NCBI RefSeq assembly: GCF_003334355.1
Contig: NZ_QOWP01000006.1
Length of the DNA: 64,000 nt
Source: Escherichia coli
GTDB lineage: Bacteria; Pseudomonadota; Gammaproteobacteria; Enterobacterales; Enterobacteriaceae
Direction: 5' to 3' (one strand)
Positions 47,293 to 47,675 of this stretch are shown piece after piece. The notes below the pieces were generated by a model. That model was not told the origin of the DNA. It was given only the letters and a program-made list of their open reading frames with translations, and searched no databases. The position numbers and the translations under genes were made by a program. Within the stretch, counting starts at the first letter, position 1. Each line of letters starts with the position of its first letter.

Positions 47293-47393
47293 GAAGCCAC
47301 ACCAGGCATATAATTATTCGCTACGGCGAGCAATAATTTTTAGCGCAGCAATATTATGCGTTTTACGCTGTAACTTGCTCCATGGACGTTGTG

Positions 47394-47675
47394 TCATTGT
47401 TTTTCCTCAAGCCGGTGACGCGCTTCACTGCGAATTTTCCGCGTTGCCCCGGTTTTCACTAAATCACGTAACAGCGAAAGATCGGGTTGTTCGACAAATA
47501 AGAGTAATGATGGATCCTCTTTTAACCACGCCGTTTTCACATCGGCAGCCAGCTGTGGATTATTAATAGCCAGCGACCGATCCTGAGGCTCAGTCAATGT
47601 CGTTAACAACAACGCCGGGGTATGTGCGTTGCGCAATGCCGTTTGGCGTAAATGATCATTGCGACTTTGCAGCAA
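47394..47675 (-). CDS. hypothetical protein, ykiA-position ORF (possible pseudogene)
   Basis: 93-codon frame between rdgC and ppnP opening with TTG (no in-frame ATG/GTG upstream before the stop); no recognisable domain; identity as ykiA is by position only. Confidence 0.35.
   Translation of the reverse strand: MLQSRNDHLRQTALRNAHTPALLLTTLTEPQDRSLAINNPQLAADVKTAWLKEDPSLLLFVEQPDLSLLRDLVKTGATRKIRSEARHRLEEKQ

Follow-up and report, generated by a model that had tools for sequence, protein, structure and literature searches.

The overlapping ykiA and ykiD frames of Escherichia coli as probable deletion remnants of a two-gene insert between ppnP and rdgC

Genes and elements between ppnP and rdgC

The window, a stretch of 64,000 nucleotides of Escherichia coli DNA, has the K-12-like gene order aroM-ppnP-ykiA-ykiD-rdgC-mak, and a 661-nt query spanning the region discussed here matches 5,425 of 5,426 complete E. 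coli genomes. Two small frames overlap on the minus strand of the interval that separates ppnP from the convergent rdgC (Table 1). The upstream frame appears in the ORF list as 93 codons with a TTG start (47394..47675); the sequence preceding this TTG in frame (RSPDIVAELATIKDKSDDEWWRA) holds neither ATG nor GTG as far as the TGA at 47745..47747. Its own TGA (47394..47396) overlaps the ATG (47395..47397) of a 27-codon ORF, which encodes MTQRPWSKLQRKTHNIAALKIIARRSE and ends with the TAA at 47314..47316. An earlier note on this DNA had described the start-less frame, its length and the ATGA overlap, and all of these stand as it placed them. It had also put the downstream ORF in the +1 frame, which needs correction: since the first letter of the downstream ATG lies 1 nt 5' of the TGA, the frame is -1 (equivalent to +2) relative to ykiA.

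Both features are already known. The upstream frame belongs to ykiA, which the RefSeq annotation of K-12 lists as an incomplete, 342-nt DUF2773 domain-containing pseudogene that is missing its N-terminus, and which older literature gives as a 113-aa protein of unknown function (PMC3950696). The 27-aa sequence of the window exactly matches YkiD in Table 1 of PMC6001520 and is the RefSeq 'protein YkiD' (WP_120795376.1) found at the homologous position of K-12.

Several non-coding elements frame the two ORFs. A terminator-like hairpin separates the ykiA promoter region from ppnP, and the leader behind it contains promoter-like hexamers (site at 47847..47820) and ends at the place where an ancestral ATG would come next. 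The GAGGA motif in front of ykiD also precedes the intact SF0329 genes described below, and it is invariant across all sampled alleles. At the other end, a REP-type palindrome sits between the convergent ends of ykiD and rdgC; the Rfam match to naRNA4 at this place is sub-threshold (27.8 bits, gathering score 59.5), and an Rfam scan of 46900..48200 reported no RNA gene within the ykiA/ykiD stretch.

Table 1. Coordinates of the genes, motifs and deletion junctions in the window.
Feature	Position	Strand	Basis or remark
ppnP, pyrimidine/purine nucleoside phosphorylase, upstream neighbour	47883..48167	-	ORF list, RefSeq K-12 annotation
Intrinsic-terminator-like hairpin and T-run after ppnP	47854..47876	-	GCCTTCCCCTTGAACGGGAGGGC then ATTTTT
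Retained promoter and 5' leader of ancestral DUF2773 gene	47741..47853	-	97% identity to O157 upstream region
Deletion 1 junction, ~1.94 kb lost	47736..47741	-	blastn and junction reading against L005
ykiA pseudogene	47394..47735	-	last 113 codons and stop of a 759-codon DUF2773/LRV-repeat gene
TTG, first start-like codon of the remnant frame	47673..47675	-	internal Leu (WWRALLQS) of the intact protein
GAGGA, Shine-Dalgarno-like motif	47404..47408	-	sequence reading; 7 nt upstream of ykiD ATG
ATGA stop/start overlap	47394..47397	-	inherited from intact DUF2773-SF0329 pair
ykiD, 27 codons	47314..47397	-	SF0329 codons 1-11 fused in frame to 136-151
Deletion 2 junction, 372 nt, in frame	47366..47375	-	comparison with intermediate allele L017
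REP-type palindromic element	47253..47288	.	14-nt inverted repeat, 86% complementary
rdgC, convergent downstream neighbour	46325..47236	+	ORF list, RefSeq annotation

Intact pair, deletion junctions and allele forms

In O157:H7-type strains two long genes occupy the interval between ppnP and rdgC: a gene for a 759-aa DUF2773 protein (allele L005, 2550..4829, minus strand) and one for a 149-aa protein of the SF0329 family. A second haplotype (L012, 90% identical) and strain RM9872 (L016) encode a 151-aa SF0329 protein instead, and in all three alleles the pair is joined by the identical 4-nt ATGA overlap, which cryptic-clade Escherichia (L010, L093) have as well. Because ATGA joins two intact genes at this very locus in other E. 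coli, its occurrence in the window is evidently not due to chance; on comparison of the alleles, the overlap is inherited and did not evolve for small proteins. The 149-aa form differs from the 151-aa form at its end. An A-run close to its 3' end is one A longer (A6 as against A5; L005 2104..2130, minus strand, compared with L012 5700..5732), so that its tail is NYCPP in place of the family-typical IIARRSE, and the O157-type SF0329 allele may therefore be slightly damaged.

The relation of the window to the intact allele was mapped by blastn against L005, which returned three collinear blocks, and by reading the junctions between them. Block 1 (window 46200..47375) matches L005 through the last 56 nt of SF0329; block 2 (47366..47735) comprises the first 32 nt of SF0329 and the last 342 nt of the large gene at 95.7% identity; block 3 (47741..48300) runs from 2 nt upstream of the large-gene ATG through ppnP at 97.3% identity. 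Between blocks 2 and 3, the DUF2773 gene lost its start codon and 646 N-terminal codons through deletion 1. This accounts for the absence of an ATG or GTG start from ykiA. At this junction GTGAAGAT is followed by CTCCA (47736..47740, 5 nt of unclear origin) and then by GATATTGTTGCGG, while the intact allele reads TGAAGATTATGAAT at the left end and TGAGGATAGCGATATTTTTGCGG at the right end of the missing segment. The suggestion of a decayed gene, one of three offered in the earlier note, was therefore right for the upstream frame, which corresponds to the last 113 codons of a gene that had 759 and is a pseudogene in RefSeq. The idea of a mis-started small gene is not borne out, as the TTG is merely the first start-like codon inside a remnant.

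Deletion 2 lies within the SF0329 gene and is flanked by imperfect 10-nt direct repeats, AGTTAC[A/G]GCG (AGTTACAGCG and AGTTACGGCG), one copy of which survives; the breakpoint falls within GCG at 47366..47368. The deletion removed codons 12-135 and fused codons 1-11 (MTQRPWSKLQR) to codons 136-151 (KTHNIAALKIIARRSE), so that BLASTP matches YkiD to both ends of the 151-aa SF0329 protein, and the YkiD tail including IIARRSE is identical to the tail of that protein.

Alleles sampled from other E. coli strains form a series. Strain HCP4S3_I4 (L017) carries an intermediate allele that combines the ykiA remnant with an intact 151-aa SF0329 gene, from which it follows that deletion 1 preceded deletion 2. 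Both junctions are present in all 12 fetched K-12-type alleles (94.6-100% identical to the window), which argues that each deletion happened once, and junction 1 is identical throughout these 12 alleles, the intermediate allele and the O104:H4-type alleles. The latter (L003, L006, L013-L015) share junction 1 and then jump from GCGGAACTG to ATGACACAACG: the rest of ykiA is deleted, SF0329 stands directly behind the ancestral leader (L013 1478..1934), and its frame is shifted by a 1-nt insertion that gives C5 instead of C4 at codon 5. Further damage to the O104:H4-type allele is seen in BS-04. In several E. coli strains IS1 is inserted into the ppnP-rdgC spacer or replaces it (L007 4248..4945; hits H1, H55).

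Among the 5,426 complete E. coli genomes, the 1.94-kb segment is carried by 447 and the 372-nt segment by 921, while an artificial 'intermediate' query is covered to at least 80% in 500 and the K-12 query to the same extent in 4,544. Allele shares obtained from these counts by subtraction are approximate, and amount to ~8% for the intact pair, ~1% for the intermediate allele, ~8% for the O104:H4-type allele and ~83% for the K-12-type allele.

Protein families and distribution beyond E. coli

The 113-codon remnant matches the Pfam family DUF2773 (PF10971) with E=4.5e-46, residues 33-113 covering positions 1-81 of the 81 in the model. A complete DUF2773 gene would encode about 750-800 aa with a start, an N-terminal hydrophobic helix, a beta-solenoid and a full alpha-solenoid, and ykiA retains 113 of 759 codons. 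The AlphaFold model of the 759-aa protein (pLDDT 91) shows an N-terminal hydrophobic helix, predicted to be a signal or anchor, a beta-solenoid (~68-176) and a long LRV/HEAT-like alpha-solenoid; Foldseek searches of the PDB with this model found only generic HEAT/ARM solenoids at low TM-scores. An exhaustive HMMER search returned 35 relatives at E<=1e-30, some of them full-length at 25-49% identity, and homologues match Pfam LRV, LRV_2 and HEAT_2. In the contexts examined, these homologues stand alone in unrelated neighbourhoods, without SF0329. The DUF2773 model itself (window 47394..47636, minus strand) coincides exactly with the last 81 residues of the 759-aa protein. The 'domain' thus looks like an artefact of its definition on the truncated K-12 ykiA fragment, and what is listed as a family would consist of no more than 81 residues at the C-terminus of a repeat protein of ~760 aa, the part that survives in K-12.

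The second gene belongs to a family that is conserved across phyla at about 60% identity (PF25753 / NF049912): with the intact 149-aa protein the NCBIfam score is 93.7 bits, above the cutoff of 60, and the Pfam E-value is 4.8e-22. An NCBIfam search with the ykiA frame and with YkiD gave no match. YkiD does not contain the SF0329 core of ~150 aa and keeps the N-terminal WSKLQR and C-terminal KTHNIAALK motifs, while its orthologous position and the DNA identity at both ends bear out its descent from an SF0329 gene. A PDB sequence search with SF0329 yielded nothing significant, and a literature search on SF0329 and DUF2773 yielded nothing relevant. Elsewhere, SF0329 genes occur in long same-strand arrays of genes for 100-185 aa directly downstream of a tyrosine integrase. 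Such arrays also hold Imm10 and Macro-domain genes (L029 387..10483; L030 726..10483) and resemble acquired immunity-gene arrays. In Paenibacillus, SF0329 homologues lie near SUKH-3 and DUF2314 genes.

Outside E. coli, one genome per species was scanned for the RdgC N-terminus, which gave 91 Enterobacterales loci with both gene ends from genera that include Citrobacter, Salmonella, Enterobacter, Klebsiella, Serratia, Yersinia, Erwinia and Pantoea. The stop-to-stop spacer between ppnP and rdgC has a median of 58 nt and is no longer than 120 nt in 79 of these 91 loci, and a homologue of either gene was found in the spacer of none of them. The only large spacer among the 91 non-Escherichia genomes, 912 nt in an uncultured Erwinia MAG (L098 2807..3726), contains an unrelated 174-codon ORF (beginning MNIRKADAVDAILEQWRRERPD). 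Within Escherichia the pair has decayed in different ways. E. albertii (L037 657..1530) has an intact SF0329 gene of 151 aa, and all that remains of its large gene is ATG-AAT-AGG-TAA and a stop-riddled C-terminal scrap. Conversely, Escherichia sp. E4930 and E1V33 (L010 6200..6430, L093) have the 759-aa gene intact, and their SF0329 is a 21-codon in-frame stub, MRLRRKTHNIAALKII[I/A]RRSE, which keeps the ATG and, in its C-terminal 16-17 residues, the tail that YkiD has; the ATGA overlap is kept and the junction differs from that of K-12. Since the spacers elsewhere are short and without homologues, the pair is an insertion specific to Escherichia, and one that, judging from these alleles, has decayed repeatedly and independently.

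We consider it very probable that both overlapping frames are what deletions have left of a two-gene insert that is specific to Escherichia and lies between ppnP and rdgC. A first deletion of ~1.94 kb would have spared the promoter, the leader and 113 codons at the end of the large gene, and these codons constitute ykiA; a later in-frame deletion of 372 nt between the imperfect 10-nt repeats would have reduced SF0329 to the 27 codons of ykiD. The opposite polarity, in which the short arrangement of K-12 came first and the long O157-type genes result from a later insertion into it, is extremely improbable, even though the short form is the commonest in E. coli (~83%). We rejected it because full-length homologues exist of which YkiD matches the two ends only, the 151-aa SF0329 protein being a full-length family member, and because the K-12 junctions lie at short repeats, as deletions would give. 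The large protein, too, has full-length homologues elsewhere; the ykiA frame opens in the middle of a repeat protein without a start codon, and neither mobile-element ends nor target-site duplications were seen to bound the 372-nt and 1.94-kb segments.

The nature of the ancestral pair is a separate matter. A large and a small gene joined by a tight 4-nt overlap, together with the occurrence of SF0329 homologues beside Imm10, Macro, SUKH-3 and DUF2314 genes, could be taken to indicate a toxin-antitoxin or toxin-immunity module, of which ykiA and ykiD would be the neutralised remains and YkiD a residual antitoxin fragment. We regard this as very unlikely. PADLOC matched neither intact protein, and Pfam and fold searches for toxin, antitoxin or defence domains in the two proteins returned only repeat folds or uncharacterised families; the model of the 759-aa protein likewise predicts repeat/solenoid folds only, with no enzymatic domain. 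Moreover, the joint retention or loss to be expected of such a module is not what is seen, as E. albertii retains only SF0329 intact, E4930 and E1V33 retain only the large gene, and homologues of the large protein occur elsewhere alone. An obligate toxin-immunity pair was rejected on the ground that each gene survives alone in some Escherichia lineage.

Translation, selection and the standing of YkiD

Chromosomally tagged YkiD-SPA is reported to be detected by immunoblot in LB cultures (VanOrsdel 2018; PMC6001520). BglJ-RcsB activates the promoter in the ppnP-ykiA spacer, and this activation depends on RcsB; the transcription start of ykiA was mapped by 5'-RACE and the binding site was confirmed by mutation (PMC3950696). 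Most likely, the remnant transcript still runs from this ancestral BglJ-RcsB-activated promoter through ykiA into ykiD, where ribosomes would start at the retained ancestral GAGGA and ATG, and translation of the ykiA frame would be unnecessary for making YkiD. Another BglJ-RcsB target, molR (yehH), is likewise listed as disrupted in K-12 (PMC3950696 Table 1), so that at least two K-12 targets of the silent BglJ-RcsB regulator are gene relics.

The detection of YkiD raises the possibility that it is a selected, functional small protein, coupled through the ATGA overlap to a short YkiA that is started at the TTG or another non-canonical codon. Some features of the locus agree with this: the TTG is preceded at 7-11 nt by a GGTGG motif, the ykiA frame is stop-free in the sampled alleles, and the ykiD ORF is open in 12 of 12, one haplotype stopping one codon early. 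The independent 21-codon stub of E4930 and E1V33, which keeps the ATG and the tail RKTHNIAALKII[I/A]RRSE, could hint at selection on the tail. With regard to the coupling, which the earlier note had offered as a third option in the form of a coupled pair of small proteins, the stop does overlap the downstream start (ATGA 47394..47397). Nevertheless, the upstream ORF of a coupled pair should be translated, and as far as the sequence can tell the ykiA frame offers no ATG or GTG, just an internal TTG. The GAGGA placed 7 nt before the ATG argues that ykiD may be initiated independently and makes coupling unnecessary. The reading of ykiA and ykiD as a coupled pair of small proteins is not supported as it stands, since the overlap was inherited from the pair formed by the large gene and the 150-aa gene, ykiD has its own GAGGA and there is no credible start for ykiA.

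The pattern of substitutions speaks against a selected function as well. The selection tests draw on a small sample of 12 K-12-type alleles, with transition/transversion bias ignored. In these alleles six YkiD protein variants occur: the K-12 form, S7I, T13K, I16T, L19Q with K20N, and R11H with K20R and R25C in which the last codon is lost. Several of these changes are non-conservative (S7I, T13K, L19Q with K20N, and R25C). Three synonymous changes stand against nine nonsynonymous or nonsense ones, at 17.3 synonymous and 63.7 nonsynonymous sites, so that neutrality (omega=1) fits (P=0.76), omega=0.1 is rejected (P=0.0007) and omega=0.25 is borderline (P=0.05). For ykiA, pooled polymorphism gives a dN/dS of ~0.57, compared with 0.25-0.28 in the same region of intact genes; the pooled value lies below 1 at least partly because several of its variants also occur in intact alleles, a pattern that points to recombination or ancestral polymorphism. 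The changes private to remnant alleles (11 synonymous, 25 nonsynonymous) are compatible with omega=1 and reject the intact-gene level of omega=0.25 (P=0.002).

Across 10 distinct alleles of the sample, neither a stop nor a frameshift was found in the 110 compared ykiA codons. If 44 changes fell at random, about 2.3 of them should create stops, and the absence of stops is not significant (P(0)=0.09); the only indels in the sample are a 3-nt in-frame deletion and a 1-nt insertion at the junction.

Altogether, the substitutions in both remnants fit neutral evolution. Since both remnants accumulate substitutions in the manner of neutral sequence, YkiD is best read as a translated gene relic and not as a selected small protein. 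Of the 151 residues it keeps 27, the conserved SF0329 core is lost entirely, and ~17% of E. coli are without the K-12 pair of ykiA and ykiD remnants. A selected function with coupling to a short YkiA is accordingly very unlikely. In a variant of the functional reading, the stub has been co-opted: the 27-codon form in E. coli and the 21-codon form in the cryptic clade have the ATG, the ATGA overlap and the tail in common, and two independent in-frame deletions of SF0329 might have been retained for a peptide with a basic C-terminal helix (RKTHNIAALKIIARRSE) that is functional under BglJ-RcsB-inducing conditions. We consider this, too, very unlikely.

The reading of YkiD as a relic bears on how the locus is annotated. 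YkiD figures among the 'new small proteins' validated in K-12, and its case illustrates that a selected function does not follow from the detection of a tagged product. Its origin from SF0329 residues 1-11 and 136-151 is of use for annotation and does not amount to a discovery; a statement that YkiD is an SF0329 fusion relic evolving neutrally was not found in the searchable literature. In addition, the intact, intermediate and three decayed forms provide a natural allele series in which the BglJ-RcsB-regulated DUF2773/SF0329 pair could be studied.

Compared with known systems, the two frames of the window are identical to genes already described. The annotated pseudogene ykiA (b0392) has the same coordinates and frame as the remnant, of which the 93-codon TTG ORF is a sub-stretch, and YkiD (VanOrsdel et al. 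2018, Proteomics 18:1700064) agrees in sequence and in its position between ykiA and rdgC, and is the same gene. The intact pair of O157:H7, O55:H7, O145:H28 and other strains has the locus, the ATGA overlap and the Shine-Dalgarno motif in common with K-12. The promoter region of K-12 is 97% identical to that of the O157-type pair over ~110 nt from the ppnP terminator (47876..47854) to junction 1, and the ykiA and ykiD DNA is 95-96% identical to the matching ends of the pair, whereas in K-12 the first gene is shorter by 1.94 kb and the second by 372 nt. ATGA junctions are typical of translationally coupled overlapping genes, such as trpB-trpA. Genes of this type share with ykiA-ykiD a 4-nt stop/start overlap on one transcript; unlike them, the upstream frame is here a start-less pseudogene and the downstream ykiD has a Shine-Dalgarno motif of its own.
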